64,000 bases of DNA from Chrysomallon squamiferum (Eukaryota; Animalia; Mollusca). Under the pieces are notes generated by a model. That model had not been told where the DNA came from, ran no database searches, and worked only from the letters and a program-made list of their open reading frames with translations. Both the position numbers and the translations under genes were made by a program. Every line of letters starts with the position of its first letter. Positions within the stretch are counted from its first letter, which is position 1. The DNA is taken from contig CM022671.1 in NCBI GenBank assembly GCA_012295275.1, forward strand, positions 6,200,001-6,264,000, written 5' to 3'. Positions 20,431 through 64,000 of this stretch are shown one piece after another.

Positions 20431-20469
<39 letters not shown>

Positions 20470-22860: not shown

Positions 22861-22902
<42 letters not shown>

Positions 22903-23027
22903 CTTTGCCCATCCTTATTTTAGATTAATATGTCACAAGATTAAAGTACTTTTTTTTTTTTTTTTCTCATATTTTATGTACCGTTACTTAAGTACAGATC
23001 CAAGGAATATACCATGATAAAAGATAT

Positions 23028-23058
<31 letters not shown>

Positions 23059-31380: not shown

Positions 31381-31421
<41 letters not shown>

Positions 31422-31977: not shown

Positions 31978-32017
<40 letters not shown>

Positions 32018-35000: not shown

Positions 35001-38000
35001 TACACTGTACATACAGATCATTATGAGACAACATGGTCCTCTAGACTCAATGTTTGAACATTTCTCGGGAAAAACAGTTAGTCGTTGGATCAGTCCTTCA
35101 AAGTTACCTTTCCTCTTTGCTCATTGCTTCTTAAAACACCAATTTAATAGTTCATTTCCCTAGTTCTGCAGTAACAGTGTTTGATTAGCAGTGATCCGTG
35201 ATGGGATCAGTTGTAACACTAGCGCTTACTGGTTCTCGAGTTCGGCAGTGTTTGATTACTTCTGGTCAGATGCAGGATCACTCGTTAGTGTCAGTCCTTG
35301 TCAGTGTACATGTTTTGTAGATGATTTGTCAGTCATTATTTGTCTTAGAATCAATTCTTTAGTGTAAGGTTACATACCTGTCTGGTAGAAACATCGTTTT
35401 TTTTTTTTTTTTTTTTTTTCTTTGTGGTGAATCACTGTGATGTTGTCTTTCTTTTCTGAACCATTTTGAACATCCAGAGAAAAACTTGCAGTTTTATCAT
35501 TATTATTGTTAGTTATTGTTATTATTATTATTATTACTATTATTATGATTATTATTATTATTGTTATTATTATTGTCATTATTATTATTATTATTATTAT
35601 CATTATTATTATTTTTATTATTATATCATTATCATCATGATTACTATTATTATTACTATTATTACTACTATTACTACTATTAGTATTATTACTATTATTA
35701 TTACTGTTATTATTATTATTGTTTTTTTATTATTATTATTTTATTATTATTATTATTATTATTATTTTTATTTTTATTTGTATTTGTACTGAGGGACTTT
35801 AAAAATGTGATAGAAGTAAAAAAAATTCCCAGAAACTGTCACATTTAAACATTTCAGTTTCATTATATTCACCTTCTAACACTTTTTATTCTACTTACGG
35901 GAAGGTGTATATAAAAAATCTTTCTTGCTTCCAGTTAATCAAGAGCATCACTTACAACACTGAGTTAATTTTTCATTACAGTGAGAGAAAAAAAACCCCT
36001 ATTAATTATTAACATGTTCACACATCATTAAACAAGTATTCATCTATTTACTGTGGTGAGTAATGTAAATATTTGACAGGGAGAGGGGAACATTGAGTAT
36101 GTGATTGAAGCATCTGACCATCATGAAATGATGTCATGGCTTGAAGTACTAGGAAGAGTTATCCATCAAGAACGACTCCCTGGAGATGAGGCAGCTGGGA
36201 CATCAGTCATGTAAGTGTGTCAGTAACAGTAAATAACTTAGTTAAAAATGTGACAGTAGCTGAATAACTTACAATTAAAAATGTGTCAGTAGCTGAATAA
36301 CTTACAATAAAAAATGTGTCAGTAACAGTAAATAACTTACAATTAAAAATGTGTCAGTAACAGTAAATAACTTACAATTAAAAATGTGTCAGTAAGAAAT
36401 AACTTACAATTAAAAATGTGTCAGTAACAGTAAATAACTTACTACTAAAAGTCTGTCAGTAACAGTAAATAAGTTATGAAAGTCTGTCAGTAACAAGAAG
36501 TAACTTATGAAAGTGTGTCAATAACAGTAAATAACTTTCAATTAAAAATGTGTCAGCAACAGTAAATAACTTACTACTAAAAGTCTGTCTATAACAGTAA
36601 ATAAGTTATGAAAGTCTGTCAGTAACAGTAAATAAGTTATGAAAATGTGCCAATAACAGTAAATAACTTGCCATTTAAGTAACTACTACAAGCGTCAGTA
36701 ACAGTAAATAACTTACAATTAAAAATGTGTCAGTAGCTGAATAACTTACATTTAAAAGTGTGTCAGTAATAGTAAATAACTTACAATTAAAAATGTGTCA
36801 GTAACAGTAAATAACTTACTACTAAAAGTCTGTCTATAACAGTAAATAAGTTATGAAAGTCTGTCAGTAACAATAAATAAGTTATGAAAGTCTGTCAATA
36901 ACAGTAAATAACTTGCCATTTAAGTAACTACTACAAGTGTCAGTAACAGTAAATAAGTTATGACTAAAAGTGTGTCAGTAACAGTAAATAACTTACAATT
37001 AAAAATGTGTCAGTAACAGTAAATAACTTACTACTAAAAGTCTGTCAATAACAGTAAATAAGTTATGAAAGTCTGTCAGTAACAGTAAATAACTTACTAC
37101 TAAAAGTGTGTCAGTCATGGTAAATAACTTATTACTAAAAATGTGTCAGTAACAGTAAATAACTTATTACTAAAAGTATGTCAGTAAAACAGTAAATAAC
37201 TTACAACCAAAAGTATGTCAGCAACAGTAAATAACTTATGACTAAAGGTGTGTCAGTAAAACGGTAAATAACTTAAAATTAAAAGTGTCAGTAAAACAGT
37301 AAATAACTTATGTCTAAAGGTAGGTCGGTAAAACAGTAAATAACTAACAACTAATAGTGTGACAGTAAAACAGTACATAACTTAAAACTAAAAGTGTCAG
37401 TAACAGTAAATAACTTACTAGTAAAAGTGTCAGTAACAGTAAATAACTTACTACTAAAAATGTGTCAGTAACAGTAAATAACTTACAACTAAAAGTGTGT
37501 CAGTAAAACAGTAAATAACTTACAACTAAAAGTGTGACAGTAAAACAGTACATAACTTAAAACTAAAAGTGTGACAGTAAAACAGTACATAACTTAAAAC
37601 TAAAAGTGTGTCAGTAACAGTAAATAACTTACAACTAAAAGTGTGTCAGTAAAAGTAAATAACTTACGACTAAAAACCAGCTTAGTCATAAGGTCATGGT
37701 AAGTGTCTTCCTGTTTATGGGTATGTCCATGTAAAATTTCATTTGCTGCTAACTGAAAAGGGGTAACCCATCACATGATGGCAGCTGATTTCCTGATTCG
37801 TTACGTTTTGTCTTTAACAGTGTATGTTAATGAACAGTAAATAAAATATTTCTTTCATTTTTATAAAAATAAATTATATACACAGAGTATCTAGTCACCA
37901 GTCTTGTTGATTCATAAACAATTTTATATTTTTCTGTTTACAAAATGTCAAAAATATGAATTTCTCTTTATGCAAAAATATAACGAACTTTGATGTCTTT

Positions 38001-38429
38001 GAAAAGTGAATTCTGTTATTTATATATTGTTAAGTTTTGTCATAAAAAGTTTTAGATAATCAGGTGCTGTTTAGTTCTGATTACAGAAAATTCATTAATG
38101 TACTTGAAAATGTTCTGTTTACTCATAAGTTCCTTTAATTTTATTCTTAAATATTTTATATTTAACTTTACTTTAAAACATTTTTCTATTATTATGAGTT
38201 TCCATATTTTTGAGAACAGAAAAAACAAAACTTAACAAACACATTTATTAATAAACAGAATGATAAACTTCTTTTTTAAACAAGTAAATTTGTCACATTA
38301 TTATCATCATTAATTTAATTTTTTTATATATAAACAAACAAGATAAAGTTTAACAGTGAAATATTAACTGTTGGTGTCTGTTATTAAAATGTTTTTTTTT
38401 TCTTTTCAAATATATTTTGTATATTATTA

Positions 38430-38482
<53 letters not shown>

Positions 38483-38506
38483 TATTTTTTATTTATTTAT
38501 TTATTT

Positions 38507-38537
<31 letters not shown>

Positions 38538-41500
38538 TTTTTTCTTTTTGTTCTTTTAGTTATTTATTTTATTAACATATATATTTTTTTTCCAGGCGAC
38601 CAAGACTTCCTACTGCACCTTCAGGATCAATAGAGAGAAAAGGTACAAATATAATAAATGTTTATCAACAACACAACAATAAATAAACATAGATCCAATA
38701 CAAATGTCTTTCATGAACCAGTTTCATTTTCAAAAATATAAATGTGTTGTGTGTCTGTGTGTCTGTACATGTGTGTGTGAAATTTAACTAGCTTTCTTTC
38801 ATCTACCCACAACAAAGCTGAGGCTTGTTTTTGAGAACAACTGGATCAGCTGTAGATTTATGTGTGTTAAATATTGATTTGTTGAGTTTCTACTGTAACT
38901 CCATGCTGTGTCACAGTGACATTTCTCTTTCACCATGGTCCTTTTTTCTTTTCTTCTTTTTTTTTTAAATTTTAAAAAAATACTAAATTACAAATATGCT
39001 GAGAGTTTAACTGCTTGGTCTTTTTGTATACATGTATAGTTGTTGGGGGTTTTTTGTACAAAAAAAGAAATGAAGAAGAGAAAGAATCGCCAAACAGAAA
39101 AATGTTTGTGTTAAATGAAAGGTTTTATTACTTTGTTTATCTTTTTTTCTTATTTCACATAAATAACTTCACCTACTCTGTGAAACATATATCTCATATT
39201 AATTGAATACTTGACAAAAACAACCCCCCAGAAAAGTTTAAATTCAATTTTATTTTTTGGAGACAAATCTGTTTATAATCCAGCAAAGGTTTCTGTTAAT
39301 AGTCAGTAAATGATCATTTCAGTCAGCATTGCTGTTAAAATTTATTTATCTATTTATTTATTTATCATGTTGTTGTCACTGATATTTATCAATTTTTTTT
39401 TTTTATTAACTTAATGATTATTTGCCATTTTATTGATGTCAGATAAGTGATATTATTATGCTAACTTTTGTTGTCAAACATTTATATTTTATTTATTTAT
39501 TTACTTAATTACTTAATTTATTAGTTACTTTTTTTTAATTATTTACTTTACTTTTCTTTACTTTACATATCTTACCTTATCTTATTTATTTTTTGTTTGT
39601 TGTTTTTTTTTTTTTATTTAATTAATTTTAGTTCATTTATTTCTGCTGGTATATCATTTATTCCTGTTGTTTGGTATGAACATTGCAAAATGACCTTTGT
39701 TCTGACAAAATTTAGCTTGAAAACATCAGAATTATGAAATAGTCAGTTGTTATCCATGGATCTAGAAAATATTTAACTGTATAAACTGAAATAACTGAGT
39801 AAATACATCTACTGTATCTTTAGTGTGTTTGTATCTTCTCTGTGTATGTGAGTTAGTGAAAGCAAGTAGCAACGATTTATGAAGTAAACAAGGTTAACAT
39901 TTCAGAAAACCAAATTTTAATACTGAAAGCTCCAAGATATTTGCTTCAGGCACAAATTAACTTTCTTCACATTTCAAGACTCTCAAACTTCTTGTCTCTC
40001 GGCTTAGAATTCCACTTTGATTTTTAACTTAAAACTTTTTTCTTTTATTTCTGACATTTTGACTCTTACAAGTGTACAATTAGGTGTACCCACTTAACCT
40101 TAATACTCATATCACCTAATAATACCGCAGACCAAATTTTACTCTTTAAATGTCTTTCTAATTATAAAATAATAATGGGTTTCTAAATTTTTATTGTTAA
40201 ATGATTGTCTAAATTCTTGTTATTAAATGTTGGTCTAAATTTTTGGTGGTCTGTGGTTTTTGTTTAGTTATGACAAGTCCAACTTCCAGTTTTTATTTTG
40301 AATAATTAAACATTGAACTGAATTGTTTTGTCCATTTGTCTTCTCCATAAGCATTTCACAAGTTTTTGTTTTAATTATTAACAGTAACAGATACTGTTAA
40401 TATATTACTGTTCCCTTTAGTGGTATATATTATAGGGTCATTCCGTGTCAAATCACCCAATGGTTTAAACCCGACCGTCTCAGATTTTTATGAAACTTGG
40501 CATACTTGTTGACTGGGATCCCACAGCACCAAATCTGAAATGTTAGCCCAATCAGACCAGTGGTGTGGGAGATACGGCCCACGGAATTTTGAGATTTTTG
40601 CCAAAAATGGGTGTGACCACCAACCTTAGAACCCTCATATCTCAGGAACTACTGGGCCAATCTTCATAAAATTGGTATTGTTAGAAAGGCAAAATGACAA
40701 GGATACCAAATCTGCCATTTTTGTTTAGTTTGGAAAATACTGGAGTACCTTGACCTTTTGACCTTTGCTATGACCTTGAAATTGACCATGTGGATCATGT
40801 TATCTTGAGATGACCTTTATTGAAATTTAATCTCCCACATGTTAACTAAAACATATAAAAGTTTCCTGGGTGTAATATTTTTTGTTTAGCCACAATATAG
40901 ATTCAAAAAATGCACATACATGAAAATAACACCTTTTCAGCCATTAACATCTGATTGACTAAAACCTGAATGATCAATTCTGGATTCTAGGAATCACCAT
41001 CTCTCTTGATCATCAAGTAAGACATTGTAGGCCTACATGTATGCATAAAGTTCACATATAAAAGTTTCCTGGGTATAATATTTTTTGTTTAGCCATAATA
41101 TTTTTTGTTTAGCCATAATAGAGATTTAAAAAAATGCATACCTGCATGGATGATTGATACAATGCATTACAATGTACATTTTCTCTGAGACTAAAAACTC
41201 ATCTTTGGAGTTAAAACCCACCTGACATGTCTGAAGGAATGCCTGAAGGATATGAAAAGATGCCAAATGGCATGACATATTCTACACAATCAGGCTCAAA
41301 GGATTAACAGGAAGTGATTCTTCAGGCAGGTCAGGAACTCCTTTAGATTCCCTGGTGCAATCCCCATTTAGCACATGGCAGTTAGAAGTTTAAGACAAAG
41401 AAGTTTCTTCATCTGCATTTCTTTGACAATCTGAAGCTTTTTAAGTTGGACACAATGTCAGATGTTGATATATAAACAATATTTTTATTTTATAAAACCT

Positions 41501-44500
41501 ATTAAGTAATTTTATCATGTCATGTGGGCCTTGCCATTGGTTTTGAACAAGGTTTCAATCAACAACAGTACAACCCAGTCTGATATCAGACGTCATCAAG
41601 TGATGTACTGCATAATGTATTTGTACACCAAGTCTTCGGCACAGAGTATGAACAAGGTCTACTTCACCTTAATAAACTGTGATTTATACTTGAGAAGATT
41701 GACATAAATGCCCAAGACTTGTGGGCCTTTGGCAATAACACATGTACTCTGCTGCCATTTTATGGCCTGCTTAACTTTACTGAAAGGGTTTCAGGATTTG
41801 ATTTAATATTTAGGAAAGCACTGACTTTGTTCTATTGAATTGAAGGTGCAGGCCAATACTGAAAATCCTTATTTCTTCCAGGGCTAACTGCAGCTTTAAC
41901 TCTCCTGAAAATGTGTGTTATCAACACCATCATATCAAAAAGGAGTTGTTGCGAAGTGTATGGAAAACTGAGGAAATCGAACTCCTCACTCTTTGAAGTG
42001 GGATCAAAACACGGGACATCAAGAGTATCATGAACAAGAACTTTTCATGAAATTTTCAACATTGCCGAAAAACTGTTGTGATCCCCTTAATCGCCACCCT
42101 GAGCAAGCACGCATTAGATCTTTAAGAATTGTTAGCATGGGCACTTACAAATGCTTAGTAAATCCTCCAAAGACACTAGTGCCAGGAGACAAGTTGTGCT
42201 GTGACTGTCTGATTACCCTTCAGAAATCAAAGGTCCTGCAGAGGATGGCTTTAGTATGGGTGGTATTACAATGGGAGAATTTGGTGATAACTTGCCAGAC
42301 AAACCGCTGGTTGTTGTTTCCCCAGAAAAGGACTTTGATTTGAATTCTATTCTGTTGAGTTTAGGCAAAACTTCTGTCAAACTCCATTAAATGAATGAAA
42401 GGACAGAAAAAAACTAGCATCAGCTACAGTAACATTAAAATGACATCTTAATGTCTGAATCCTACCCAGAGCGTGTGCAAATCTTGATTTTGTCACCCTT
42501 TACCATTGAAAGGCCAATGAATTGAAGGAGGAAATAATCCAATTTTATGAAAGTGATGAGAACAGTAGAATGTGTCTGGGAATGAAGGATACAGTGAGCA
42601 TTTGAAACAAACATAGTGAGAAAGTTAAGCATCAGAAACACCTAGTTCTCTCAAATTTATGTGAACTTTATGCATACATGTAGGCCTACAATGTCTTACT
42701 CGATGATCAAGAAAGATGGTGATTCCTAGAATCCAGAATTGATCATTCAGGTTTTAGTCAATCAGATGTTAATGGCTGAAAAGGTGTTATTTTCATGTAT
42801 GTGCATTTTTTGAATCTATATTGTGGCTAAACAAAAAATATTACACCCAGGAAACTTTTATATGTTTTAGTTAACATGTGGGAGATTAAATTTCAATAAA
42901 GGTCATCTCAAGATAACGTGATCCACACGGTCAATTTCAAGGTCATAGCAAAGGTCAAAAGGTCAAGGTACTCCAGTATTTTCCAAACTAAACAAAAATG
43001 GCAGATTTGGTATCCTTGTCATTTTGCCTTTCTAACAATACCAATTTTATGAAGATTGGCCCAGTAGTTCCTGAGATATGAGGGTTCTAAGGTTGGTGGT
43101 CACACCCATTTTTGGCAAAAATCTCAAAATTCCGTGGGCCGTATCTCCCACACCACTGGTCTGATTGGGCTAACATTTCAGATTTGGTGCTGTGGGATCC
43201 CAGTCAACAATTATACAAAAATCTGAGACGGTCGGGTTTAAATTTCTTTTTTTTGGGGGGTGATTTGACATGGAATGACCCTATAGCATTATTTATTTAT
43301 TATTTTTTTTAATTATTTGATAGAGGGGTATTTTTTTTTTTTTATTAATAATAAAATGGTATATTTATATTTTTTTAAATTATTTTTTTTTTTTTTTTTT
43401 TAAATTTATTTCAGAGACAACACAAATCACATCAGCACACAGAAGTTCATCACAGGGCAGTCTGGGAGGCAGTACCCCGGAAATACCTCCTCGCCCATCA
43501 CCACGCCCATGGAGCACACCACACCAAACTCCAACTTCTAGTCGTGTTTCTAGTTCTGTTGATGTGGCCAACTCTGCTAGATACGAAACTGGTTTGATTA
43601 TTTTGTTATTTGTGTGTGTGTGTGAGAGAGAGAGATAGTGATTCATTGAGTAATACCTGTGTTATAAAATGTATATGTTTGTATTATATATATCATAAAA
43701 CATATATGTTATATTACAGAACCAGTAGAAGGAGGTGTAGATTCAGTGTTATGTATGTTATTTTACAGAACCTGTAGAAGGAGGTGTAGACTCAGTGTTA
43801 TTTATGTTATATTACAGAACCTGTGGAAAGAGGTGTAGACTCAGTGTTATGTATGTTACATTACAGAACCTGTAGAAGGAGGTGTAGACTCAGTGTTATG
43901 TATGTTATATTACAGAACCTGTGTAAAGAGGGATATACTCAGTGTTGTGTATGTTATATTACAGAACTTGTGGAAGGAGGTGTAGACTGTGTTATGTATG
44001 TTATATTACAGAACTTGTGGAAGGAGGTGTAGACTCAGTGTTATGTATGTTATATTACAGAACCTGTGTAAAGAGGGATATACTCAGTGTTATGTATGTT
44101 ATTTTACATAACCTGTGGAAGGTGGTGTAGACTCAGTGTTATGTATGTTATATTACAGAAGGAGGTGTAGACTCAGTGTTATTTATGTTATATTACAGAA
44201 CCTGTGGAAGGAGGGATAGACTCAGTGTTATTTATGTTATATTACAGAACCTGTGGAAGGAGGGATAGACTCAGTGTTATTTATGTTATATTACAGAACC
44301 TGTGGAAGGAGGGATAGACTCAGTGTTATTTATGTTATATTACAGAACCTGTAGAAGGAGGTGTAGACTCAGTGTTATGTATGTTATATTACAGAACCTG
44401 GGAGGAGGTGTAGACTCAGTGTTATGTATGTTATATTACAGAAGGAGGTGTAGACTCAGTGTTATGTATGTTATATTGCAGAACCTGTGGAAGGAGGGAT

Positions 44501-44895
44501 AGACTCAGTGTTGAGAGAGTACCCCTGGTTTCATGGGACGCTGTCACGGGTGGAGGCAGCTCAGCTCGTACTACAACAAGGACCAGTAGGACATGGAGTG
44601 TTTCTTGTGAGAAAGAGTGAGACTAGGACTGGAGAGTACGTCCTCACCTTCAACTTTCAGGGTCGAGCCAAGGTAACATTTAAACATGAGATTTTTCATT
44701 TCAAAAATTACTTTCCATTTGTATAGTGTTGTATATTTACTTTCTGTAAATGTGTGCTATCACCATTGATTTTTTTAAATTATTATAGGTGTAGTTTTAT
44801 AATAACTTTTCATGGCAGGAAAGAAATAACAAATACAAAATATGGTGTTGCATTTGTTTTAATTAGAAAGTGAAAAAAGCATTTAATAGTTTTAT

Positions 44896-44948
<53 letters not shown>

Positions 44949-45439
44949 ATATATACACACATGCACAGTTACCCAGGTTATGATGTATGAAATATTTACT
45001 ATATTGTTGTTGTTGTTGTTGTTGTTTTCAGCACTTACGGATGACTATTAACAACGACGGCCAGTGCCGAGTCCAGCACTTGTGGTTTCAGGCAATATTC
45101 GACATGTTGGAACACTTCCGCACTCACCCCATCCCCCTGGAATCGGGCGGGTCCTCCGACGTCACCCTCACGGACTACATTGTGTTTATGGAGCGACCGC
45201 GGACGCCGACGACGTTGCCCCGGGGGTCACCACGGTCTCACGGGAACCCGAGCCTGCGGAACTCGCTGTCCGTCCACCACGGTCAGTTCGAGGCGAGCAG
45301 GGACGCTGCGGTGGTGGTCAGCGGGTCCATACGGTCTCGGACGTCGTCCATCGAGAACGTGGTGAGGGAGCAGACGCACGGGTCTCAGGGGCAGCTGTCT
45401 CACGGGCGGGCAGTGGAAAACCACTATTCTTTTGTGTAG
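19260..45439 (+). CDS. SH2B: SH2B family adaptor (SH2B1/APS/Lnk homolog), 7 coding exons, 587 aa
   Basis: Exons 19260-19967, 30571-30672, 36080-36210, 38596-38642, 43415-43591, 44482-44672, 45032-45439; all GT-AG with consistent phases (0,0,2,1,1,0), total 1764 nt. Phe-zipper (WIQFCE..A.AAAQDF), PH domain ([22 protein letters not shown]), SH2 ([39 protein letters not shown]), C-terminal [10 protein letters not shown]. Confidence 0.93.
26185..26340. repeat. Short tandem repeat, about 3 x 50 bp
   Basis: atgtttttgttagtatggaattatatattttacataaaa-like unit occurs three times. Confidence 0.8.
30571..30672 (+). CDS. SH2B: SH2B exon 2 (PH)
   Basis: ttttcag|[34 protein letters not shown]|gtaaac. Confidence 0.92.
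33310..34670. repeat. AT-rich minisatellite, about 56-63 bp unit, roughly 20+ copies (SH2B intron 2)
   Basis: Unit aatacatcaacatctgtatttcttaattctttttaagtaatacttacatttacatttaattat. Confidence 0.92.
36080..36210 (+). CDS. SH2B: SH2B exon 3 (end of PH)
   Basis: ttgacag|[28 protein letters not shown]...|gtaagt. Confidence 0.9.
36213..37675. repeat. Minisatellite, about 31-36 bp unit, about 40 copies, starting inside the SH2B exon 3 donor site
   Basis: Unit aagtgtgtcagtaacagtaaataacttacaactaa; the first unit begins at intron position +3 (gt|aagtgtgtcag). Confidence 0.93.
37690..37860 (+). mobile_element. Degenerate SINE-like 3' fragment
   Basis: ggtcatggtaagtg..ttgctgctaactgaaaag..gatggcagctgatttcc..taaataaaatatttctttc; partly the reverse complement of the 4130-4395 motifs. 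Confidence 0.4.
38596..38642 (+). CDS. SH2B: SH2B exon 4 (47 nt linker)
   Basis: tttccag|[15 protein letters not shown]|gtacaa; bridges phase 2 to phase 1. Confidence 0.75.
40435..43281 (+). mobile_element. Internally deleted Sola2-like DNA transposon, 2847 bp, long inverted arms, TATA target-site duplication
   Basis: Termini GGGTCATTCC...GGAATGACCC, flanked by TATA (40431-34, 43282-85); inverted arms 40435-41058 and 42658-43281; transposase remnants [79 protein letters not shown] ends plus a 4-bp TSD fit Sola2; the family assignment is from recalled motifs. Confidence 0.85.
41993..42675 (+). pseudogene. Fragmented Sola2-type transposase (N-terminal and central motifs only)
   Basis: Motifs listed above are interrupted by stops, frameshifts and deletions; no catalytic region recognised. 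Confidence 0.75.
43415..43591 (+). CDS. SH2B: SH2B exon 5 (Pro/Ser-rich linker)
   Basis: atttcag|TTQITSAH...[12 protein letters not shown]...RYET|gtttga; phase 1 to phase 1. Confidence 0.8.
43705..44512 (+). repeat. Tandem array of the SH2B intron 5/exon 6 junction, 49-bp unit, 17 copies (the last is the inferred functional acceptor)
   Basis: Unit gtatgttatattacag|aacctgtggaaggaggtgtagactcagtgttat = 16 nt intron + about 31 nt matching the exon start. Confidence 0.95.
44482..44672 (+). CDS. SH2B: SH2B exon 6 (SH2 N-half)
   Basis: attgcag|[18 protein letters not shown]...FQGRAK|gtaaca. Confidence 0.9.
45032..45439 (+). CDS. SH2B: SH2B exon 7 (SH2 C-half and tail)
   Basis: ttttcag|[19 protein letters not shown]...HPIPLESGG...[10 protein letters not shown]. 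Confidence 0.93.
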
Positions 45440-48400
45440 TGTGTATAGCTGTGTGCTGCCATGTTATATACGTCTGGTATGTCACACGCTCTCGCAGCAC
45501 AGTCGCCGATATTCTGTGAGAAAGGTTGATTCTGAGAAAGAATTATTCGGTTAGTGTCTGTAACAGTTTTTACCTTTCGTCACTAACGAGAAAGATGAGA
45601 TTTTGTTTCATGAGAGAAGTTGATTCTGCAAAAAGGATATATTTAGTTGAAAAAAAAAATGCTCTTTGCACATAAAGAAAGATGAAATGAGATTTTGTGA
45701 GAAGAAATTCTTTCTGAGAACAATGGAGTTTGTATATTACTCTTTACAAATAGGACGAATTTAGTAGTAATTTATGAGAAAGATTACTGATGAACTTACA
45801 GTGATTATTAAATAAAATATCACATACAAATGAATTCTGTTTAAAGTATATTTATAAAAGTATTTTGTTTAAAATGTTACTGTATAAACATTTTAAAAAG
45901 GCTCTTCAAAATAACAGAAAATGTTTCTGTACACTTTGAAGGACATTTTTTTTTTAATACTTTCTACTGATAAGAATTAATAATAATTATAATTCATTAC
46001 TATATAGATATATATATTTTTTTTTTTATCAAACAATATTTGTGTATTATTTTAGTTACTTTTATTCTAAAAGGTAATTTATTTACAAGAGCAGACTTGC
46101 TTATGAATTCTGTTTTACTTTACAGTATTTAAGAAATATTATGGTCTGCAAAACTGTTGACAAGGGTTTAAATTTCTTTGCTGTTTGGTCTGTTCTGTAC
46201 AGTTTTCATTTTACAAAGTAATGGAGTCTTGGAGATACTAAAGGTGTTTGACAGGTGTGTTGCATAGTTACTAAAAACACATTTTAATTGTCATGTTAAA
46301 AAGATCAGTGATGTTTTGTTACAGACAAATCAACAGTTAGGCTTTATTGATACTGGTCAGGTGTTTTAAACTTCACTTCTTAATTTATTTCTCTTTTTTT
46401 ATATATATCTTAATTTTTACTTTTTTCTATTTTCTATTTTTATTTTTTGTTACTTTATTATTATTATTATTATTATTATTTTAAATCAGAGTTGTTAACA
46501 TTTTGTTATACCTAATTAAGGTAATTTTATTGTTAAGACATTTAATATATAATAATATACATATAATAATTATCTTTCTTTTTTTCATTCCTTTTTTTTT
46601 TTTTGAATAAACTTTGTAATTAAAATAACTACCTGTTTTATTTGTTAAATATGTATTTTCAAATTAATTTATCATTTTAAACAGAGCAGAGTTCCAAACC
46701 AACCAGTTTAAAAAATATAGGCTATTTTAAACGACAATTTTGTTAAAGCATAGTTTTAAGATAGACTTATTTATTTTGGTTTTTCTCAATCAGAACACAG
46801 ATTTATGTAAACATAACAAATTGTTTTCATTATTTCACAAATTTAACTGAACAACAGTTTCTCTGAGAAGATTTAAGACTCAGTGTCGGACATCTGATGA
46901 CCTCTGACATCAAACATTCCTAGGCTGTTGTCCACTCAATGAAAAGAGTTCCTTATATTCTGATACCACGTGTATTGAGTTATGCAGATTTATCTCCCCT
47001 TACAAAATTTTACTAACCATTTCGAACAGTTTAAAAAGTTTTCTTTTTAAAATCAGCTTTTCTAGAATTTTGTAATTTTAATACATATAAATTTTTCTTC
47101 TTTATTTTTATTTATTTATTTATTTATGATTTTTTGACCTACAATTTAAAATTTGATTAAAGTTCCTTTTTGATTTATTTTTGAAATAACTATTTTAAAT
47201 ATGTAACTAGTGGATTTTTGGAATTGTTTTTTTTTCATGCCTATGGTTAGATAAAAAAAATTGAAAATATATTCTTAATGATAATTATATAGAAATGTGT
47301 ATTTTTATTTTTTCATTTATATAAGTAATCTATCATAGACAGGTATGCAGAATTCTTAGAACAATACAAACAAATCACTGATGCATATCGAATTTCAACA
47401 TTCATGACCAAGTTTACCCAGACATGCTGGCTTGTGTCTAATTTTGATTCTTTTAAAAGTTTTCTTCTTTTTTTTTTACATTTTTTAAATTTTTTTTTTT
47501 AATTATTATTATTACTTTTTTTTTTTTAAGCTCAACAAAGCTGTATATATTTAGCTACTAAATTAATTTGTAACTGAATTTTCCTGTTTATTTTTGTAAA
47601 AAAAAAAAAAATTAAATTAAAGACTGTCTTATATATATATATATATATATATAACTACATTTAATAACATAGATTGCGCTTTGCCACATTCAGTTTGTAC
47701 ATACCTTCTTTTTTTTTTTACAGTATTTTAATGTTTATGCTGTACTAAGTTCAAACATCTCCTCCATTCTGTAAATACTTGATGACAATTGTAAATCAAA
47801 TTATTTTGTTGTCAATGCATGACATTATTAGCATGCCAGCAAATATTCATTGTATTTACCATCTGTAAACAAACATGACATCATAACTGCATGCCTAAAA
47901 AGATATTTTATAATTTACATTTTAGTATTTTGCATATTGGTCTGTTTTTAATATTCCAGTATTTTACTCATTTTATTCTTCTTGTACATGTATAGCCAAT
48001 GTTGTTTTTTTTGTTTGATTTTTTTGTTTTTTTTTTCATTTCTATTCTGACAAATCAATTGTTTGTGATAACACATGCAGTGCATGCATGAACTTTTGTC
48101 TAGTGAGATTTTTTAAATTATTATATATCATCTTTTCCTTTCAAGAATTTTGAAATATATTCATCATTAAATTATTAAAAAAAAAAAAAAGTATAAAGCT
48201 GTGTATTTATTTGCATATAAATATTTTTGTCTTTAAATATCTTATAATCTACATTTTGTTGCATTGACTAAAGTAAATGTGTTAAATATTTTTACTTGTG
48301 TGCGTGGTTGAGACCAAAGTTATGGGTTAATGAATGGAAAAAGTCTTATAATTATCATGAATAAATTATTATTTTTAAAAGATTACATTTTATTATTTTA

Positions 48401-48948
48401 TTTTTTTATGAGTAGTAGGAACAGTAGCAGTAATGGTGGTAGTAGTATTTGTAGTAGTAATAGTAATACTGGCAGTAACAGCAATCGTGATAAAAATATT
48501 TGTACCAGTTGTTTATTATTATTATTATTAGTATTATTATCAAAGATATAAATAAATAAAACAGTTATAAATAATCACAAACTCAGTAACTAACAGGGAC
48601 TAGATTGACGTGATCCACTGGAGAGAATTGATCTTACAACTGTTCACACACAAAACTCTGCCAGCACTGTATGTGTATGTTAATATTGTTTACCTCAGAT
48701 GAAATGTCATTCACTTAGTTTTCTCATCAGTTGATCGATCTTAATTAAAAACTGTTTTATTGCTTAAATAACAAACTGGCAGAATGAACTTGTTGGTTTT
48801 ATTTATTCTGAAACACTATCTTGAAGTCAGTTTTGTAAAATCTCTTAATTATTACTTCTACTACCACTATTACCTCTACTACTGCCAATACTATTACTAT
48901 TACTACTATTGCTAATGCTACTGTTACTATTAATACTACTACTGCTAT

Positions 48949-48979
<31 letters not shown>

Positions 48980-49250
48980 GCTAGTACTGCTAGTGCTATT
49001 ACTATTACTACTACTACTCCTGCCAATACTATTACTATTACTACTACTACTACTACTACTACAAATAGCTTTTATTTTTTAATCTTTTATGCCCAGTGTT
49101 AAAAAATAAGAAGTATGTGAGGTATTTGTTTTTTTCTTAGTTGAGTATGTCAGACATTATGATGAAGGAATTAATCATTCAAATAACTTCTAGTCTGATT
49201 TGATCACCGACATCTGACATATTTTCTTCCAATTACATTTTTATAGCCCA

Positions 49251-49308
<58 letters not shown>

Positions 49309-50819: not shown

Positions 50820-50879
<60 letters not shown>

Positions 50880-53689: not shown

Positions 53690-54399
53690 TATATATCGTA
53701 CCTTGAAGATTTTATGTGAGCAGTCTCTTTTATAATGGAAGTAGTGTCAATCGTTCTCAAGGACGATAGGAGAAGAAATTTAAACGTTCTTCTCCTATCG
53801 TCTTTTTTTTTTTTTTTTTTTTATGCGGCGTAATTTAGTAAACGAACGCTCCCCTGTGCAGTTTGTAACCACCATACACAAATACCTGCGTAGTATTATT
53901 TCAATATTAGAAAAACATGATTGCACGTTGTGATCTCTGATGAGACTGTAATAGCCGTGTTTTCCTGATCATCAGCTGCATTAATCAGACTGAGAAGCAC
54001 TCGGATCAGTTGTGGCCCGCTTGCCAAACTCCGTTGAGAAGTACCACGAACTGCAGAAGTTCGTTTGCCAGACTGACCTCCAAATCATGTGTATACTTGT
54101 TAATGAGCGTCATCGCCGATTTTGACAGTTGCTCCTCGGACATCGACCTAAATTTTGCAAGCAGCTAAACTTGTAACTGATTTCTTCATAGGCTTGCAAA
54201 TGTTTCTTCAGTGTTTTTGCGACAAAGAAAATTTCAACAACTGTTCAAAAACGTACCTCTACACAAAATAAATATCAAAGGCTGTAGTCAAAATCGTGAT
54301 ACCCAGCGTTCTGATTAAAAAAAGAAAAGAAAAGAAGAAAAAAAAGTTGTTCCGCGGTGCCCCTGAAAGTGCGGGGCCCGTAGCATTAATCCGGCACTG
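53690..54399 (-). mobile_element. Decayed hAT-superfamily DNA transposon (C-terminal dimerisation-domain remnant and one terminus)
   Basis: Minus strand reads ..NIEIILRRYLCMVVTNCTGERSFTKLRRIK..TIGEERLN (hAT dimerisation motif ERSFSxL) and LINKYTHDLEVSLANELLQF; hAT-like end CAGTGCCGGATTAA begins at 54399. Confidence 0.8.
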
Positions 54400-55673
54400 C
54401 ACACACACAGACACACACGCGCACACACACAGTCACACACTTTTAACTAGTCGACATTACCTATCACACTTTATTTAACGTATAGGTGCAAAAATATGAA
54501 TGAGTTATTTTCAATTTCCACACATAAATTTTATATAATAATACTAAATAAATAAATAAATATATTGAGAAATATAAAATAAAAATAATATGTGGACAAA
54601 GTGTTGCGAAACACTGATGCCATTTATAATTATATACGAAATTTCCGAACGAAATTATCCGAAAACAAAAAAAGAAAGAAAAATTGTATCCTCATGGTAC
54701 CGGTTTTGACGCAGATAAGCAACAATCTCGCGTTGTGCAGAAATATTGTGATTATTGCTTTATTTGGAAGATTAAAAAAAAAAAAAAATAAATAAAAAAT
54801 CTTCTTTAAACAAAATCTTGCCCATGATTATGGTCACTTGTTATTTAATGAAGGTGTGTCAAAACCCATACCGAGACGGTATTATCTGCATGAAATGTAA
54901 TAATTTTTATAAATTAACGGGAAAATATTGTTTAAAATTACGTTGCTGTTAGACATGCTTATTTTCAAGAATGCCAAAAACACGTCTTTAAAAACAAGGT
55001 AATTTATAAATTTATATCAGTACGAAAAGATGAAACGGAAACATATATTCTGCCATTGACGTCATTTGTTTGGAATAAACAGCTTGGCGTAGTTGAAATT
55101 CTGAACTATATTTCTACAGCGTTAAATATTAACAACTAGTTACTTAGGAGACAACACTGAGTTGGTTGATTTGTGTGTTTGTTGCAGTTTTTATTAATTT
55201 TTGTTTTATTGTTCATGTTAGGTTTTGTTATGGTTTCAACTTTTTTTTTTTTTTTTTTTTTTTTTTCGTTGTTGGTTTATTTTTATTTTTATTTGTTGTT
55301 GTTGATGTATCAAATGGTCGTATCTGACTGAGGAACCTGGCTTGAAGTAACCTTTTATGGTAACTATTATGATATTTACATTCCACAGAAATAAATGCAT
55401 TTAATTTGTTTCCTTTACATTACAAACATCTGCATTTTCTTGTTTGAGTTTCGGTATTTAAAACACCGATAAATTTATGTAAGAAGAAAACGAAATTCAC
55501 GAAGCACCCAACTACGCTGAACAAGAAGGAAAACAGTATTATAAAAATCTGTCAGAATCGTCGCAGACGTGCTTCACAACAGCTTGCTCTGATTAGCACG
55601 TTAATTTTTTTCCTATTCCTATTCCTAATGTTCAACTCGTAATTAAAACGTTAAATAATAATAATAATAACAA

Positions 55674-55882
55674 CATGGCCGTAACTAGACTGGTTTTGAA
55701 ATGAGGCAAAAATCGGTTTGATGGCTGATGTCTTTGAAGTCAGATATGTCTATCATCGCAACGATGTCGGTAAACTTCAAACGATAACCGTAGACAATGA
55801 ATTCATTCAAGTGGATATCGTTTCTATCGGAATATAGATTTATATCTTATATTTTTTTAAATAAAAATCTTTGTATAAAACC

Positions 55883-55955
<73 letters not shown>

Positions 55956-56000
55956 AAAAATCGTAAATTTCTGTATGAGGCGTTTGCCTCAATGTAGTTG
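55674..56000. mobile_element. Possible hAT-type MITE remnant
   Basis: Left catggccgtaactag..tgaggca and right tgaggcgtttgcctcaatgtagtt resemble hAT MITE ends; the right end is truncated and no TSD was found. Confidence 0.3.
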
Positions 56001-56001
56001 T

Positions 56002-56067
<66 letters not shown>

Positions 56068-58012
56068 TTTTCCACATCATTTAAATTATTTCAAATTAAA
56101 ACATTTCTTCTCAAGTTTATATCTGGTAGTCACGTACATTTGGTGACCCTTGATCCCATTAACCATCACATACCAATCCTGTTCTTTAATAGTTTATTTT
56201 ACTTTTTATCAAAACAAGCTTGTACAGAGGATTTAAATTTGTTTTTACAATAATTTTTTAATACACAATGAAATAACGCACAGGAATAATTTATTTAAAT
56301 TTTTTTTCCCATTCAGTATGAAATAAATACATGCAAAATATACAGGATATCGAATGTAGTTTATTTACAAAGTTAATGAAAAACAAAAGAAATTTCGTTT
56401 CTAGCAACTATTTTACAACTTTAATGTTAATCTGTATTTTCTGTATTCTGCTTGTAACACTGATCAGTAATTAAGTAATGTCCACAATAACTGAAACAAA
56501 AAAAATTAATTTAATAATGAGATTAAACATCTGAAGTCTTTAAATAATAAATGTTTTTATTCATTACAAAACCAACATGACTTATCGTGTATCTCTACTG
56601 TTATAATTTAGTTATTGTCACACTGCAATGTGATAATAAGTGTTAGTTTTATTTATAATGATAGTGTTTTAATTTACAACTAAATGTTGAGATTTAGATA
56701 TTTATACAGTATCACTGTTTGTATGTTATAAGTTAAATAATAAATATGATTAATTTTTTATTATTATTTATTTTCCATTTGATCATTAAAAACCAGTCAC
56801 TTGGCAATACAGCTTAATATGACTCAAGTATTAAATTGGATTTCAAATTTAATTCTGATTTTTTAAATTATATTCAGACTGGTATATGAAAAATGCTTAA
56901 CATAACATATTCAACTGTATTTTAGTTATTTTCATAATAATCTGCATTGTAAGAAAAATATTTAAATTAATTTGTAGTATAATAATGATATTATAATCTT
57001 TTATGTAATTTCATTACAATGAGAATAACCAACAAATTGATGCAAGTTGTTTAATGTGAACTGTGGTTAAAAAAAAAAAAAAAAAAAAATTACTTGATGT
57101 TATTTAAGGAATAGTTAGATCTAAATTTTCTCAGTTGTTGAGGTAAGCTATTTGTTAAAAGAAATCAATAAAGACAAACCATAAATATTTTCTACAAAGT
57201 TTATTTGTAGGAAAAACATTTAAAAAAAAAAAATAATAATCGTGCAGTTATACACACAGATAGATAAATAAATGTTTTAACAAAACAAACAAAAATAAAA
57301 AATATAAAAATAAAATAAAAAGGAGTTCAATTCTAACTTTTTTTCACATTTCAGATAAATATACATATATTTGTGTGAATACTCCCATTTACCTTTTCAG
57401 CATGGAAATTAAAAAATAAAGAAGACAAGAAAACCCCCAAACATTTAAAATAACGTGTCTATGGACAAGCAAAAGATTTTTAAAAAGATTTAAAACTAAA
57501 AGATAGCCAATAAGAATGTTTTAGTTTTTTTCTGCTGTATCAGAGAAATGCAGTGCTGTCACACAGTGATACACAATACACATATTTACATTTGTACATG
57601 AATAGATGTTTATCCCCCCCACTCCCCTCACAAAAAAACAACACAAAAACAAATAGAGAAAAAAGAAAAGAAATGAAGACTTCTATACATTTAATTCTAT
57701 AAAAGCTGTTGTACACTTATTTACACATGTACTCTATTTACCTATACATATATATATATATATATATATATAAATATACACAAACTGTAAACAGTTATCT
57801 CCCTTTAAATATTTTACATAAGCTAGTATGTACATCTACCGGTATCCAAATTGTTTACTTGTGTAAGTGAATTTTTTAAAATTTTAATCAGAAAATTAAT
57901 ATTTAATTTGAAAACTGTCAAATAAAAAGTAACTTATTATGTTTTACAATAGATCAATTATTTTTGAATACATACACTGATGTTTACATACATTTTATGT
58001 ATTTAAAAACGA

Positions 58013-58050
<38 letters not shown>

Positions 58051-58362
58051 TGCTGTGGTACAATAAACTCTTTTGTGTACATATACTGTTTTAACAGTTT
58101 TAGTTTTTCAATTTCGTATTCTATTATTTTATTTTGTTTTGTTTCATTTCATTTCATTTAACTGAAGAGTATTAGTAAGTTTTTTGTTAAAGTTCAGACA
58201 GTGTGGTAACAGAATATTCTAAACACATTTTCTTCACTTCACAGCAAGTATTTTGTGTTTTATTTATTTCCACATATTAAATATTTTCTTTTAACAAGAC
58301 CTCAGTACAGAAAGAAATACCAACATTGTTTAGGCATAAATGTATTAATGTGTGAAAAAAAC

Positions 58363-58429
<67 letters not shown>

Positions 58430-59269
58430 AAAGTGTGACAATATTTTAATATGTAATAACTAATAATATAACAATAATAATAATAACAAAATAATAATAA
58501 TAATAATAATAATAATTAAATGCAGGTATTTTTCTTTCTTTTTTTTACACACACATTAAACAATTGAAACTGCAGTGTCAGAAATAAAATATGAAATAAA
58601 AAAATCAGTTTACAAATGATAAACAAACACAGGCATGTTACATCCCATAACACAGAAATTTACAAAAACCGATTTGCACTAAAAGGTTTAAAAAGTGAAA
58701 CTTAAGCTACCTTTAAAAGTATAAATAAAAACACAGCCAACATGAGGTGAAAAATAAAAAATACTGTCACCATGACAACATCTGCAGCATTACCCATGAT
58801 ACGCATGAAATAAATAGTTAAAAAATTTGTGATATCACACAATATGTACACAGTCACACAGCATTGTCACACATAGTGCATAAATACTAAACTAACACTG
58901 TTTTATTCTGCCTTGCTTGTTATCAACTCATTGCAACACTGTACTTACTCAACATTTAACCTTTCCTTCCTAACCCTATTTTTTAACACTGAACCATTTA
59001 CCTTTTAAGTCTGTTTAAAGTTTAATTTTTACTTCCTAAATCTGTTTTTAAAATTCAATTTTTTTTTTTCTTCCTAAATCTGTTTTAAGTTCAAACTATT
59101 TCTTCCTTAAGCTGTTTTTAAAATTCAACTTTTTCATCTTCCTAAATCCTTATTTAAACATTTCTGTAATTAATAAACATTACTGTTAAAGGCTGCCTTT
59201 TCCAAAGAGTATCAACCATAAATATTTAATTTTTAAATTTTTAAAATTTATTTTTTTTACATTGAAAAC

Positions 59270-59301
<32 letters not shown>

Positions 59302-59903
59302 GTTAATCTATTATGAACAAAAGAGTGTAATCAAAATGTGCATTTTAATTGTTACTATACATCTGTAATACATTCTTCTCTGTGTTGTAATCCTATAGTT
59401 TATGATAATAAAGTCATTATCAATGATTTAGGGTGTAAATTCCAGAAAAAAAAAACCAAGTTGTACAGTAATTAGTTTTGTCAACATAGGCACACAATTT
59501 TGCAAGTATAATCACTTCTTAAATAATAGCAGTAATTTGCATGTAATTAAGCTACCATGTGAAATGGAGGCTTAATAAATAATATTGCCATACTTCATGT
59601 AATTACCATGTGCACCTAAATGAACAAGATTATTATTAGTGTGTCAATTCATTCATTTGGATGCAGTGTCAAAAGCAGAAGTCTACATAAATACGTATGG
59701 AACACATTTTGCATTGTCTTACTCAATTAGTCATAATGACAGAGCAACCTACAAAAATCAGCAAAATTAGTGTACACAAGTTTTAAAAAAAAAAATGTGT
59801 TCAATGTCGGCATTTAATCACAACAATAAAACAATGCATTTTTGCAGCTGTTCATACAATTAATAAATATAATTTAATCAAATGATATTAAAAAAAAAAA
59901 AAA

Positions 59904-59934
<31 letters not shown>

Positions 59935-60602
59935 TAAACCAATAAAAGTAAAAAAAAAAAAATAGTAAAAAGAAGGCAACTTACATATGGGTTAAAAGTA
60001 AGGCGTGTATTTTGCCTGTCACCCCCCTCCCCATGAACCTTGGCTATTTGAATTTTAATCTCAGGTCATTATAATCTTTAGACAGCACTGCGTCTGAGTT
60101 TAGTCCATACAACATTAAATATAAGCGTTTAGATATTAAAATTATTAATTTGACAAATAAATTTTAAAATAATTAGTATGATTAGTCTGAAGATTCTGTT
60201 CAATGGACACATGCACTATGCCCCAACACCCAGAACTTTTTATTCTTATTAGAAAGTCAAATTTCTCTGAATTATTAACTGAAATCTATAATGTATCAGA
60301 CAGCATACTGCTTTTTTTTTTTTTTTTTTTTTTTACATGGCTACATTGGTGAAAAACTTTCTACATCTTCTCCAGACAGGTTAATTAAATAACATCAATG
60401 AACGTGTAGTTTGCACAAATTTAAAATTACTTGACTAGCACTTTACTGACCCCAGATTTACGAGAGGTAAACTCTCAAACATAGTCATAAATTTAAAAAC
60501 TAATTTAGAAGACTTGTTGTGTTTTGTAATGGAAATTTTTCATTGCAGAAATCAAAAATATAATCTGTGAAATATATCTGGTGGTAAAAATTAGGAACTC
60601 TA

Positions 60603-60641
<39 letters not shown>

Positions 60642-61274
60642 TAATAACAAATTTCTAATAATAATAATAAATATGAAATTATCACCAGTTTTTTAACACA
60701 AATGAAATTTCTTTTTTTTTTTTTATGTTTATCTAATATTTAACGTATCTACTGTTTTCTACTTGATTATCTTTTTTTATTAACTTACATTAACAAAAAT
60801 TCATTTCACTCCAGTACATTTTTAAACAGACTCAAAGTATCACTCACTGAGGTAACTGACACAAACTGATTCCATCTTGAACTGTTAAAACATTCATCAG
60901 CCAAACACATCCAGTTAAATCACACAAGAGTCATTTTAACTCATTTTTTTTTTTAACTGTTCTCAAAGGAAAAGACTGAAAGCATGCCTGTCCAGGGCAC
61001 ACTGATGTCAGAGAGATAAGAAACAAAAATGAGTCTTGGAATATTAATTTTCTGTTTATGAGTTGAGCTGGATTTAGACATGAACCAAGCAAGTAACAAC
61101 ATTTATGGCCTCCTAGTGAGAACTGACTTTCCACATTCTTCTGTTTAGTTATTACGTAAATTTCTATACATTTGTAAGATCTGTCCTCTGTGTTTGAGAA
61201 GTTCACTGATATTGTTATGTCATGTTAATATATGTTAAAACTTGCAAAAAGGTCTGTTCTCTGAACTTCCACAG

Positions 61275-61470
61275 TGGGTTTTATTTTAACAAGTGTTTCC
61301 TCTTCTTCTCTACGAATTTCATCAAACTTGTTATTTCAAACTACACTTGTCAAAGGTTTACCCTTTTTTTCTCAGAAGTTCGGTAAAGTTATTACATCTC
61401 ACTCTTTTCTACTAACACTTGTAAAATATTTTTCCTCTTCTTTTTTCTCAGAATTCCATTAAGTTGTTAT
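61275..61470. repeat. Degenerate repeat, about 3 x 60-80 bp, in the presumed RABEP1 3' UTR
   Basis: ttcctcttc..tctcagaa..aagttgtta..acacttgt motifs recur three times. Confidence 0.55.
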
Positions 61471-61590
61471 CCTATATAACACAGATACAACACAGTCCCT
61501 GTCTTTCCTTGGCTAACATTGAGACTCGGGACATGTCTAAATCTGCTCTGATGACAACTAGAAAAACGCACAGCAAGGTGAAACATAGAG

Positions 61591-64000
61591 CTAATCTGGG
61601 GTTGTTGGAGGCTCAGTGCTGAAGTAGGGAGTCGCATCTTTGACCAGAATCGTGTGGCAGACGTCGCACACCTTCGCGACGCGGTTGTTGGGTCCCTGCA
61701 CCACAGACTTGGTTATACACTCCGTACAGAATATTCTACCACAGTGCTTGCAGTGATGCTGAAAGTAAGTAAATAAGTAAATAAATAAATAAATATGATG
61801 ATGATGGTAATGATAATGATGATGTTGGTAATAATAATAATAATCATAACATTAACATTAACAATAATAATAATAATTAAAAAAATATAAATTATAGTAA
61901 TAATAACAATAACAATAATAATATAGAAATAGTAATAATTACAGTAATGACAGTTAGTTATACTATAACAAGGATAATAATAACTGGTATGATGATGATG
62001 ATGATGGTGGTGGTTTACAAAATGATAATTATTATAATAATACTTATACTTATGTTGATGGTAACTACACTGAAATAATGTTTTATATGAAGTAACAATA
62101 ACAATAATAAATAAAAAAATATATAATAATAATAGATAAATAAATATATAAATAAAGAAATAAAATAAATTAACTAAATTATATATAAATATATATAAAT
62201 AAATAATTAAATAAAACACCTTGCGCCGGGTGACGCTAAAAGCTTGTTTACAGTTGTTACAGTCGTCAACATCGTCTTCATGTTGCCACCGAACTTCTGT
62301 CTCTGCCTGTCTTATCTTCTCTAACTGAATCTAAACACAACAACACAACATTTTATAAATAAATACTTTACAAAAACTTAACTACCTACACCCTCAAACT
62401 AGTAACAACGAAGAGTAAGAATAGTAAAAAAAAAAAAAAAAAAAAAAGGAGTAAAAAAGACATAACCAACATATCCACACACAAAAAACTTAATATTAAA
62501 ACGATACTGTTATAAAGTGACAGAAAGTAAATAAATGATTCTTTTTATCAGTAACTGGTTATGTGTAAGCATGAATTTCTAAATTGCCTGCAGTAACTAG
62601 TTACCTGTGATTTAATCAGTGACTAAATTATCCAGTGGTTTATGTCAGACTAAATTACTTGTAACCAATGATTTACATCACTGACTAAATTACCTGTAAC
62701 AATGGTTTTACTTGTAACCAATGATTTACATCACTGACTAAATTACCTGTAACAATGGTTTACATCAGTGACTAAATTACCTGTAACCAGCGATTTACGT
62801 CAGTTACTAAATTACCTGTAACCAGTGATTTACATCAGTGACTAAATTACCTGTAGTGACTGTGACAGTTTCACAAAGTCACGTTGAACTGCCTCGCTGT
62901 TATCCAGGTCAGTTTGCAGTGAGTAAATCTGAGTTTTCAGTGACTGAATTTCATTTTCCAATTTCGACTGATTCCAAAAAAAACAAAAAAAATAAACAAT
63001 TAATTTGTAACAGCAAGATTAAAAATAACATGCATATCTGAAATTTTAATTAACAAAACATTTTATATGATTCACAGTAAACTGCATATCTTTAAAATTC
63101 ATTGAAAAAAATCAGTCATTAATAGTCTTTAGGACAGAGCTTTGAAAAAAAATGGTTCCAGCCTAATTCACTGTCAACAACATGATATAAAAATAAAAAT
63201 AAAATAAGAGAAAGAGAGAGAGATAGAGAGAAAGAGAGAGAGAGAGAGATACCGAGACAGAGAGAGATACACACACATACACAGACAAACAGACATATAC
63301 CTTTGTGTTGCCGTGTTCTTCGACTCTCTGCTGCAGACACTGTATGAGTTGTCTGGACTTGGCCTGGACACTTTTTAGCGAATGTTCCGCTTCTCTCAGT
63401 TTACTCTCACACTCAGCACGCACAGATGACTCTCTCTCTAGTTCTGACTTGATGCTTTCATTACATGCTGCAAATACACGCCATTTCAGTTACTTTAAGT
63501 CTTTGTCATATCTATATATGTATAAACTAGGTTATATCCTGGACTTCTGGTAAGTTATGTATAACACTGAAGTGTGTGGGTGTCAGTGTTTAAAAGAAGT
63601 GACAGATCTGACACTGAAATGACTACTGCAGAATATGTACTTCTCTCATAATGCTAAATATTTTAAAAGTTTGTTTTATATGGATAAAAATTTTACATAA
63701 AAAGACAACAGTTCTGAAAGTCATTTACAGTCACGAGGTTTTCTATTTTATTTTTTATTTTTTCATTACTATTTTTTTTTTTACTTTTTTTTTTTATTTG
63801 TTAATCATTTATGCTATTTTATGTTATTTATTTCGTTTATTTTTTATGTTATGTTGTGTTATGTTTACAAAGCACACTGACCTAGTTTTTCTTGAAGGGC
63901 GTGCAACTCATTGGTCAGTGTTTCCTCAATAGTTGTCTTCTCCTGCTGCTCACTGACGACCTGGTCTTTGAGAAAAAGAATTTCACTGTGCAGCGACTCC
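61591..64000 (-). CDS. RABEP1: Rabaptin-5 / Rab GTPase-binding effector protein 1 with C-terminal FYVE domain, last 5 coding exons (5' part outside the window)
   Basis: Exons >64000-63882, 63467-63301, 62967-62851, 62330-62220, 61758-61591; all GT-AG and phase-consistent. SEILFLKDQV..EETL and LQTDLDNSEAVQRDFVKLSQSLQIQLEKIRQ match the Rabaptin Rab5-binding region; RWQHEDD..CNNC..RRKHHCKHCGRIFC..KVCDVC is a FYVE finger. Confidence 0.92.
62600..62855 (-). repeat. Tandem array of a RABEP1 exon/intron donor junction, about 35-bp unit, about 7 copies
   Basis: Minus-strand unit tacag|gtaatttagtcactgatgtaaatcactggt = last 5 exon nt + 30 intron nt; copies decay with distance from the exon. Confidence 0.9.

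Follow-up and report, generated by a model that had tools for sequence, protein, structure and literature searches.

Splice-junction-spanning minisatellites in SH2B and RABEP1 of Chrysomallon squamiferum: gastropod examples of the mirage repeat type

Why do minisatellites lie directly on the splice sites of two unrelated genes, and how is the correct site chosen when it is repeated many times over? The question is raised by a stretch of 64,000 nucleotides (nt) of AT-rich animal DNA from the gastropod Chrysomallon squamiferum (assembly GCA_012295275.1, contig CM022671.1, positions 6,200,001 to 6,264,000 of the forward strand), referred to here as the window, which carries an SH2B gene and the 3' part of RABEP1. 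Two of its arrays, at the acceptor of SH2B exon 6 and at a RABEP1 donor, are mirages by the features tested: head-to-tail arrangement, a minisatellite-sized unit, a position across the exon-intron boundary, duplicated splice signals and a normal main mRNA. The phenomenon has already been reported, as the mirages of lancelets and as a variable number tandem repeat (VNTR) in human F7; what is added here is the gastropod examples of this known repeat type. The reading favoured, at a probability of about 0.82, is that these mirage minisatellites are tolerated tandem duplications across a junction that grew by ordinary slippage or unequal exchange, with the exon-side copy being the one spliced.

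The genes, exons and junction arrays concerned are as follows, in positions of the window.

19260..45439, plus strand: SH2B gene, with exons 19260-19967, 30571-30672, 36080-36210, 38596-38642, 43415-43591, 44482-44672 and 45032-45439
36080..36210, plus strand: SH2B exon 3, donor at 36210/36211, placed by reading frame and homology only
44482..44672, plus strand: SH2B exon 6, the first part of the SH2 domain, acceptor at 44481/44482, placed by RNA contigs and Pfam
61594..64000, minus strand: 3' part of RABEP1, with exons (64000)-63882, 63467-63301, 62967-62851, 62330-62220 and 61758 to the stop
62851..62967, minus strand: RABEP1 exon closing the Rab5-bind region, upstream of the FYVE exons, donor at 62851/62850, placed by RNA contigs
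43702..44512, plus strand: acceptor-spanning minisatellite in SH2B intron 5, called by Tandem Repeats Finder (TRF) at 43705-44512 as 49 nt x 16.9; 17 copies
62600..62855, minus strand: donor-spanning minisatellite in a RABEP1 intron, called by TRF at 62655-62855 with a 35-nt unit, degenerate copies continuing down to about 62600
36206..37706, plus strand: minisatellite of 31-37-nt units in SH2B intron 3, called by TRF at 36213-37675 as 35 nt x 42, starting at intron base +3

The SH2B model has seven GT-AG coding exons in a frame that stays open over 587 amino acids (aa), in agreement with the original prediction that the reading frames are intact, and the protein carries Phe_ZIP and SH2 domains by Pfam. 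Its exons are matched by abalone homologues in tblastn searches; exon 1 has 31 longer homologues, the named ones all molluscan, with abalone proteins closest at 54-56% identity, followed by other gastropods. The RABEP1 end consists of five exons on the minus strand with Pfam matches to the Rab5-bind and FYVE domains. Counting coding exons only, the two genes together provide 20 coding splice sites in 10 introns. As a separate observation on SH2B, the linker ahead of the SH2 domain that is encoded across exons 5 and 6 (window 43570-44512) reads from the alignment as about 4-10 residues shorter than in 8/8 aligned homologues having the linker.

The acceptor unit, mostly 49 nt long, is composed of 18 intron bases followed by bases 1-31 of exon 6, and the array takes in the first 31 nt of that exon (44482-44512). 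Seventeen acceptor-like sites run from 43720 to 44482 at a spacing of mostly 49 nt, the seventeenth being the working acceptor. The AG is kept in 15 of the 16 upstream copies, and the exon-like parts of these 16 units match the start of exon 6 at 20-31 of 31 positions, three of them perfectly. The window has 15 acceptor motifs, versus 3.0 expected, and every one falls inside this array. Without the array intron 5 would measure about 128 nt. No branch-point pattern was recognised at a distance of up to 60 nt from the first acceptor or from the working one. Reading through from any of the 16 upstream acceptors yields a product of 391-459 aa, not 587; in 11 units a donor-like hexamer lies 16 nt ahead of the next AG, and each resulting mini-exon would likewise shorten the protein, to 391-444 aa. 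Some decay is visible in the units, with one AG lost and with deletions. Within the exon-6 copy itself, position 44507 carries a synonymous A/G difference, being G in RNA runs X5 and X7 and in DNA run X1, and A in the window, in DNA run X2 and in all array units of the window; this difference could serve to tag exchange between exon and array.

The RABEP1 unit of 35 nt combines an exon part of at least 5 bases with an intron part of about 30, the donor included. The array contains the last 5 nt of the exon (62851-62855), and the working donor is its first copy. Seven further donor-like sites follow at 35-246 nt past this donor, five preceded by CAG and two by CAA; the window has 7 donor motifs, versus 1.4 expected, and all of them fall at 62579-62855. 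Use of any of the seven spare donors would lead to an immediate in-frame stop and loss of the FYVE domain. A 7-nt direct repeat flanks the working donor, with one copy in the exon and one in the intron, and is plausible as a slippage seed judging from its sequence. Unit variants recur in blocks, as expected under repeat turnover.

The original prediction held that each array extends only into the intron, which is incorrect for both of these junctions: the exon-6 array holds 31 exon nt and the RABEP1 array 5 exon nt. As the arrays include exon bases, their units are copies of the junction and not mere neighbours of it; exon sequence within the units is the defining feature of these repeats, and it had been missed. 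The further proposal that decoy splice-site arrays are produced holds for two of the three junction arrays, those at the exon-6 acceptor and the RABEP1 donor; at exon 3 an intact donor is not repeated in register.

Which copies are used was read from archived sequence data. Eleven runs were listed, nine of them covering the stretch, from three studies and all in the form of assembled contigs, which were compared over 44410-45600 and 62770-64000 only, two outermost units per array included. The runs examined were RNA X5 and X7 (one study), DNA X1 and X2 at SH2B (two studies) and DNA X1 and X6 at RABEP1. In both RNA runs the end of SH2B exon 5 is joined to 44482, with exon 7 following exon 6, and the RABEP1 exon is spliced from 62851 to its successor. 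The exon-side copy is the only splice site used in the main RNA contigs at 2/2 junctions examined. At the DNA level, unit-to-unit joints of the SH2B acceptor array are present in X1 and X2, with contig depths of 1734 versus 58 (X1) and 181 versus 7 (X2), an excess of about 26-30-fold; the first RABEP1 unit is linked to its exon in X1 and X6, at depths of 545 versus about 70-90 (X1) and 488 versus 36-46 (X6), about 6-13-fold, and such a pile-up over the units is not to be read as copy number. Repeat units of the two arrays examined are present in DNA contigs of three studies, one DNA run of which may be the source of the assembly.

The array at SH2B exon 3 is a less clear case. The original prediction placed three main arrays at splice sites; TRF recovers all three arrays and two of them span their junctions, and the exon-3 array begins just past its donor, at intron base +3. 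Among 29 in-register copies, only one has an intact GT and the commonest units do not repeat the donor; in seven of the 29, 25-28 of the 31 nt around the exon-3 junction agree, with GA in place of the donor GT. A junction-like second copy lies just beyond the end of the array, with its GT at 37699, and none of nearly 5000 random windows of 100 nt reached as high a score in a test chosen after the match had been seen. The exon-3 junction 24-mer is found in the adjacent intron with a p of 0.013. On these sequence matches, the exon-3 array is read as a probably decayed mirage.

The original Adh3 mirage was reportedly described by Canestro in 2002. The mirages of the lancelet Adh3 gene and globin genes (BflGb6, BflGb9) are tandem repeats across exon-intron boundaries, both 5' and 3', in which many but not all copies keep the AG or GT, splicing is undisturbed, length is unstable and the mechanism of origin is unclear (PMC3087553); lancelet PGBD5 and troponin C also carry them (PMC3902484). 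The snail arrays resemble these in having boundary-spanning units, in affecting both donor and acceptor sides, in keeping many but not all AG and GT motifs and in normal mRNA splicing, and their unit sizes fall within the 10-72 bp quoted for lancelet Adh3. They differ in host, a gastropod, and allele length variation and somatic instability belong to the lancelet reports. In intron 7 of human F7, the first unit of a 37-bp VNTR spans the junction and is followed by identical donor copies, only the most upstream of which is used (PMC1557585). The RABEP1 array is arranged in the same manner, with a first unit at the junction, donor copies following and the upstream-most one used, and its donor choice thus fits the upstream-first rule reported for F7. 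In F7 only donors are repeated; in the SH2B exon-6 array it is an acceptor, and splicing goes to the last of 17 copies even though it is the first that retains the native upstream context. Variable internal tandem repeats at exon-intron boundaries of human duplicated genes, associated with new introns or alternative transcripts (PMC2812944), are similar in being minisatellites with units of about 30 bp that can lie at such boundaries; they differ in that no new intron or changed exon is shown here. With regard to intron gain, no extra intron is present in the SH2B and RABEP1 models, the 22 loci available for comparison being those of distant animals. A search of open-licence full texts, mostly titles and the beginnings of abstracts, returned no gastropod mirage and no genome-wide enrichment test, and a paper on human repeats and splicing (PMC10078293) contains, in the parts examined, no test of junction-spanning units.

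How such arrays could arise and persist may be pictured as follows. A short local tandem duplication at each junction is the likely start, and growth may have followed by slippage or unequal exchange, as the recurring unit variants suggest. A duplication across a junction would always leave the complete exon with one copy attached, at a donor the first and at an acceptor the last, and it can therefore be neutral; the copies used in RNA are exactly those predicted, the first donor and the last acceptor. The arrays are likely tolerated and likely a harmless kind of repeat, since splicing in the sampled RNA takes place at the exon-side copy; presumably they have no regulatory job. For the SH2B acceptor, exon definition may pick the last AG because it alone would pair with the exon-6 donor at normal exon length; simple scanning for the first AG would take the wrong copy, which points to exon definition at this site. 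Any rare use of a spare site would be expected to lead to a premature stop and nonsense-mediated decay.

Several points weigh against this account. The first acceptor copy retains the native upstream stretch, which is free of AG over about 70 nt (the previous AG is at -71), and the working copy has an AG at -24, so that first-AG scanning predicts the wrong site. The RNA support consists of contigs from two samples of one study, and as contigs drop rare forms, low-level decoy use is possible. Run X5 contains one contig of depth 2 with a unit-to-unit joint; the run also has a RABEP1 contig from intron sequence, at depth 2.4, which suggests a background of unspliced RNA or DNA. Copy numbers of the arrays rest on the assembly, since no long read spans a whole array. 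At exon 3, the exon-side match covers 5/7 bases, a weak result with a single-try P of 0.013 and several unit variants to choose from, and the consensus unit fits the exon end no better than random, 60% of random 14-mers equalling it. Lastly, neutral tolerance by itself leaves the excess of arrays at junctions unexplained.

That excess was assessed from arrays called by TRF over the window, where the filtered list comprises 16 non-simple arrays, six of them at least 100 nt long. Five of these six are intronic in the gene models. Three of them touch a splice site, with gaps of 3, 0 and 0 nt, and for the remaining two the closest modelled site is 1437 and 4231 nt away. The nearer of these is the fourth main array, which stands away from splice sites as first described and serves as a counter-example.

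33310..34643, strand not assigned: 63-nt AT-rich minisatellite in SH2B intron 2, called by TRF, 1437 nt from the nearest modelled splice site

All ten short arrays in the window lie more than 5 nt from any splice site, and the four short intronic ones are all off junctions, the nearest being 30 nt away. Smaller minisatellites at 26194-26340 (49 nt x 2.9) and 58997-59148 (36-38 nt x about 4) likewise lie far from modelled splice sites, and at 55883-55953 a run of 25 T is followed by 46 A in a perfect fold-back that may be an assembly quirk. In the chance model, each array was collapsed to one unit; the likelihood that such a unit spans or touches any of the 20 sites is 3-6%. The probability of at least three of five long intronic arrays lying at a junction is then about 0.00075, that of at least two of five strictly spanning one is about 0.014, and a hand estimate with the four short intronic arrays added gives about 0.003. 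These figures bear on the earlier claim that chance is unlikely, yet they overstate the case: the pattern is the reason why this window was taken from a scan of about 250,000 windows. The junction excess within this window is suggested as a hint, not a test.

Chance combined with ascertainment is the strongest competitor, and it would be a serious one at somewhat more than one in three: minisatellites would arise anywhere in introns, coding ones would be purged, and a large scan would pick out windows in which some touch a junction. In its favour are the 3-6% chance per unit in this gene layout and the position of two of the five long and all four short intronic arrays off junctions. The within-window probability of about 0.0008 speaks against it, as does the statement by the authors of the lancelet work that mirages are possibly general in that group (PMC3087553). 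On balance, odds slightly better than even are given to a real genome-wide excess of such duplications at exon edges.

If the excess is real, a cause is needed. It may tentatively be proposed that snails, like lancelets, are subject to a mutational bias which acts throughout the genome and starts tandem duplications at the edges of exons, perhaps at the point where alleles become less homologous on passing into the intron. The latter idea, that in a very polymorphic genome alleles undergoing repair or recombination pair best in exons and slip or switch template at the intron edge, is doubtful as it stands and would add a cause for enrichment to the mirage explanation, not replace it. In its favour, X6 differs from the window by 6 substitutions with no listed gaps in about 400 bases of RABEP1 exons, as against 12 substitutions and 5 listed indels in the 269 nt of intron at 63468-63736, and X1 holds two unlike intron haplotypes at RABEP1; the position of three of the five long intronic arrays would also be accounted for. 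Higher intron divergence is nevertheless normal in any animal, and the enrichment comes from one window selected for the pattern. A search for hidden decayed self-copies in the adjacent introns found none at 17/20 junctions (all p >=0.07).

The cause originally put forward, a lineage-wide process in which splicing-coupled polymerase pausing or R-loops provoke slippage or repair at exon boundaries, is improbable. It could draw on the same junction excess, which other causes would share, and on both genes being transcribed in the RNA runs, but donor and acceptor sides are both hit. R-loops favour G-rich RNA, and the arrays have a GC content of only 27-36%. A single shared satellite or a mobile element targeting splice sites was rejected, as the units are unrelated and the junction motifs are confined to their own arrays. 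Comparison of 15/15 pairs among the six long arrays with shuffled sequences gave a lowest p of 0.047, and the three junction arrays, for which no obvious mutual similarity had been noted, bear this out with p values of 0.06-0.39. The two 35-nt units, which appear alike by eye, gave a p of 0.12 against shuffles.

That the arrays are functional splicing regulators, diverting transcripts to decay and tuning the dose of SH2B and RABEP1 by copy number, is very improbable. Most spare sites are intact consensus sites and all of them lead to premature stops, and human tandem repeats can alter splicing (PMC10078293). The main RNA contigs show normal junctions only, however, and the units are decaying, with one AG lost, deletions, and GT read as GA. 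Moreover, 0/22 distant-animal loci have an array at the SH2B exon-6 acceptor (27 of 64 metagenome parts scanned), a comparison that is a weak control because no locus is shown to be a close relative and that includes two near-duplicate pairs and one apparently intronless transcript. An assembly artefact, which could appeal to the failure of every contig to cross an entire array and to the possibility that the assembly came from one of the DNA runs, is scarcely credible given units that differ in patterned ways and unit-to-unit and unit-to-exon contigs in DNA runs of three studies.

Other features of the window touch the arrays less directly. Two intronless open reading frames of the Toll-like-receptor type, at 375-2507 and 7944-10076 on the minus strand, encode 710 aa each with LRRNT, LRR and TIR domains; they are spaced 7569 nt apart and read as a recent tandem duplication. 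Open stretches at 14767-15297 and 13022-13330, also on the minus strand and pointing away from SH2B, have no Pfam match and are possibly parts of a gene whose splice sites stay outside the 20 counted. Intron 4 of SH2B contains a DNA-transposon-like element at about 40435-43281, with inverted arms of 562 nt that are 99% complementary and TATA at both flanks; an open stretch inside it has no Pfam match.

Taken as single loci, the SH2B and RABEP1 arrays are ordinary cases of a repeat type that has been described but has received little study. The acceptor array of SH2B offers a natural test of how a 3' splice site is chosen, as the copy with native upstream context is passed over in favour of the last of 17. 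If the proposed exon-edge bias is true, junction-spanning minisatellites would be a common class of repeat in invertebrates, would steadily supply new splice sites and introns, and would offer natural tests of how the last among many identical acceptors is chosen. An excess that held genome-wide would indicate a mutational bias still in need of explanation and lend weight to intron gain by tandem duplication.

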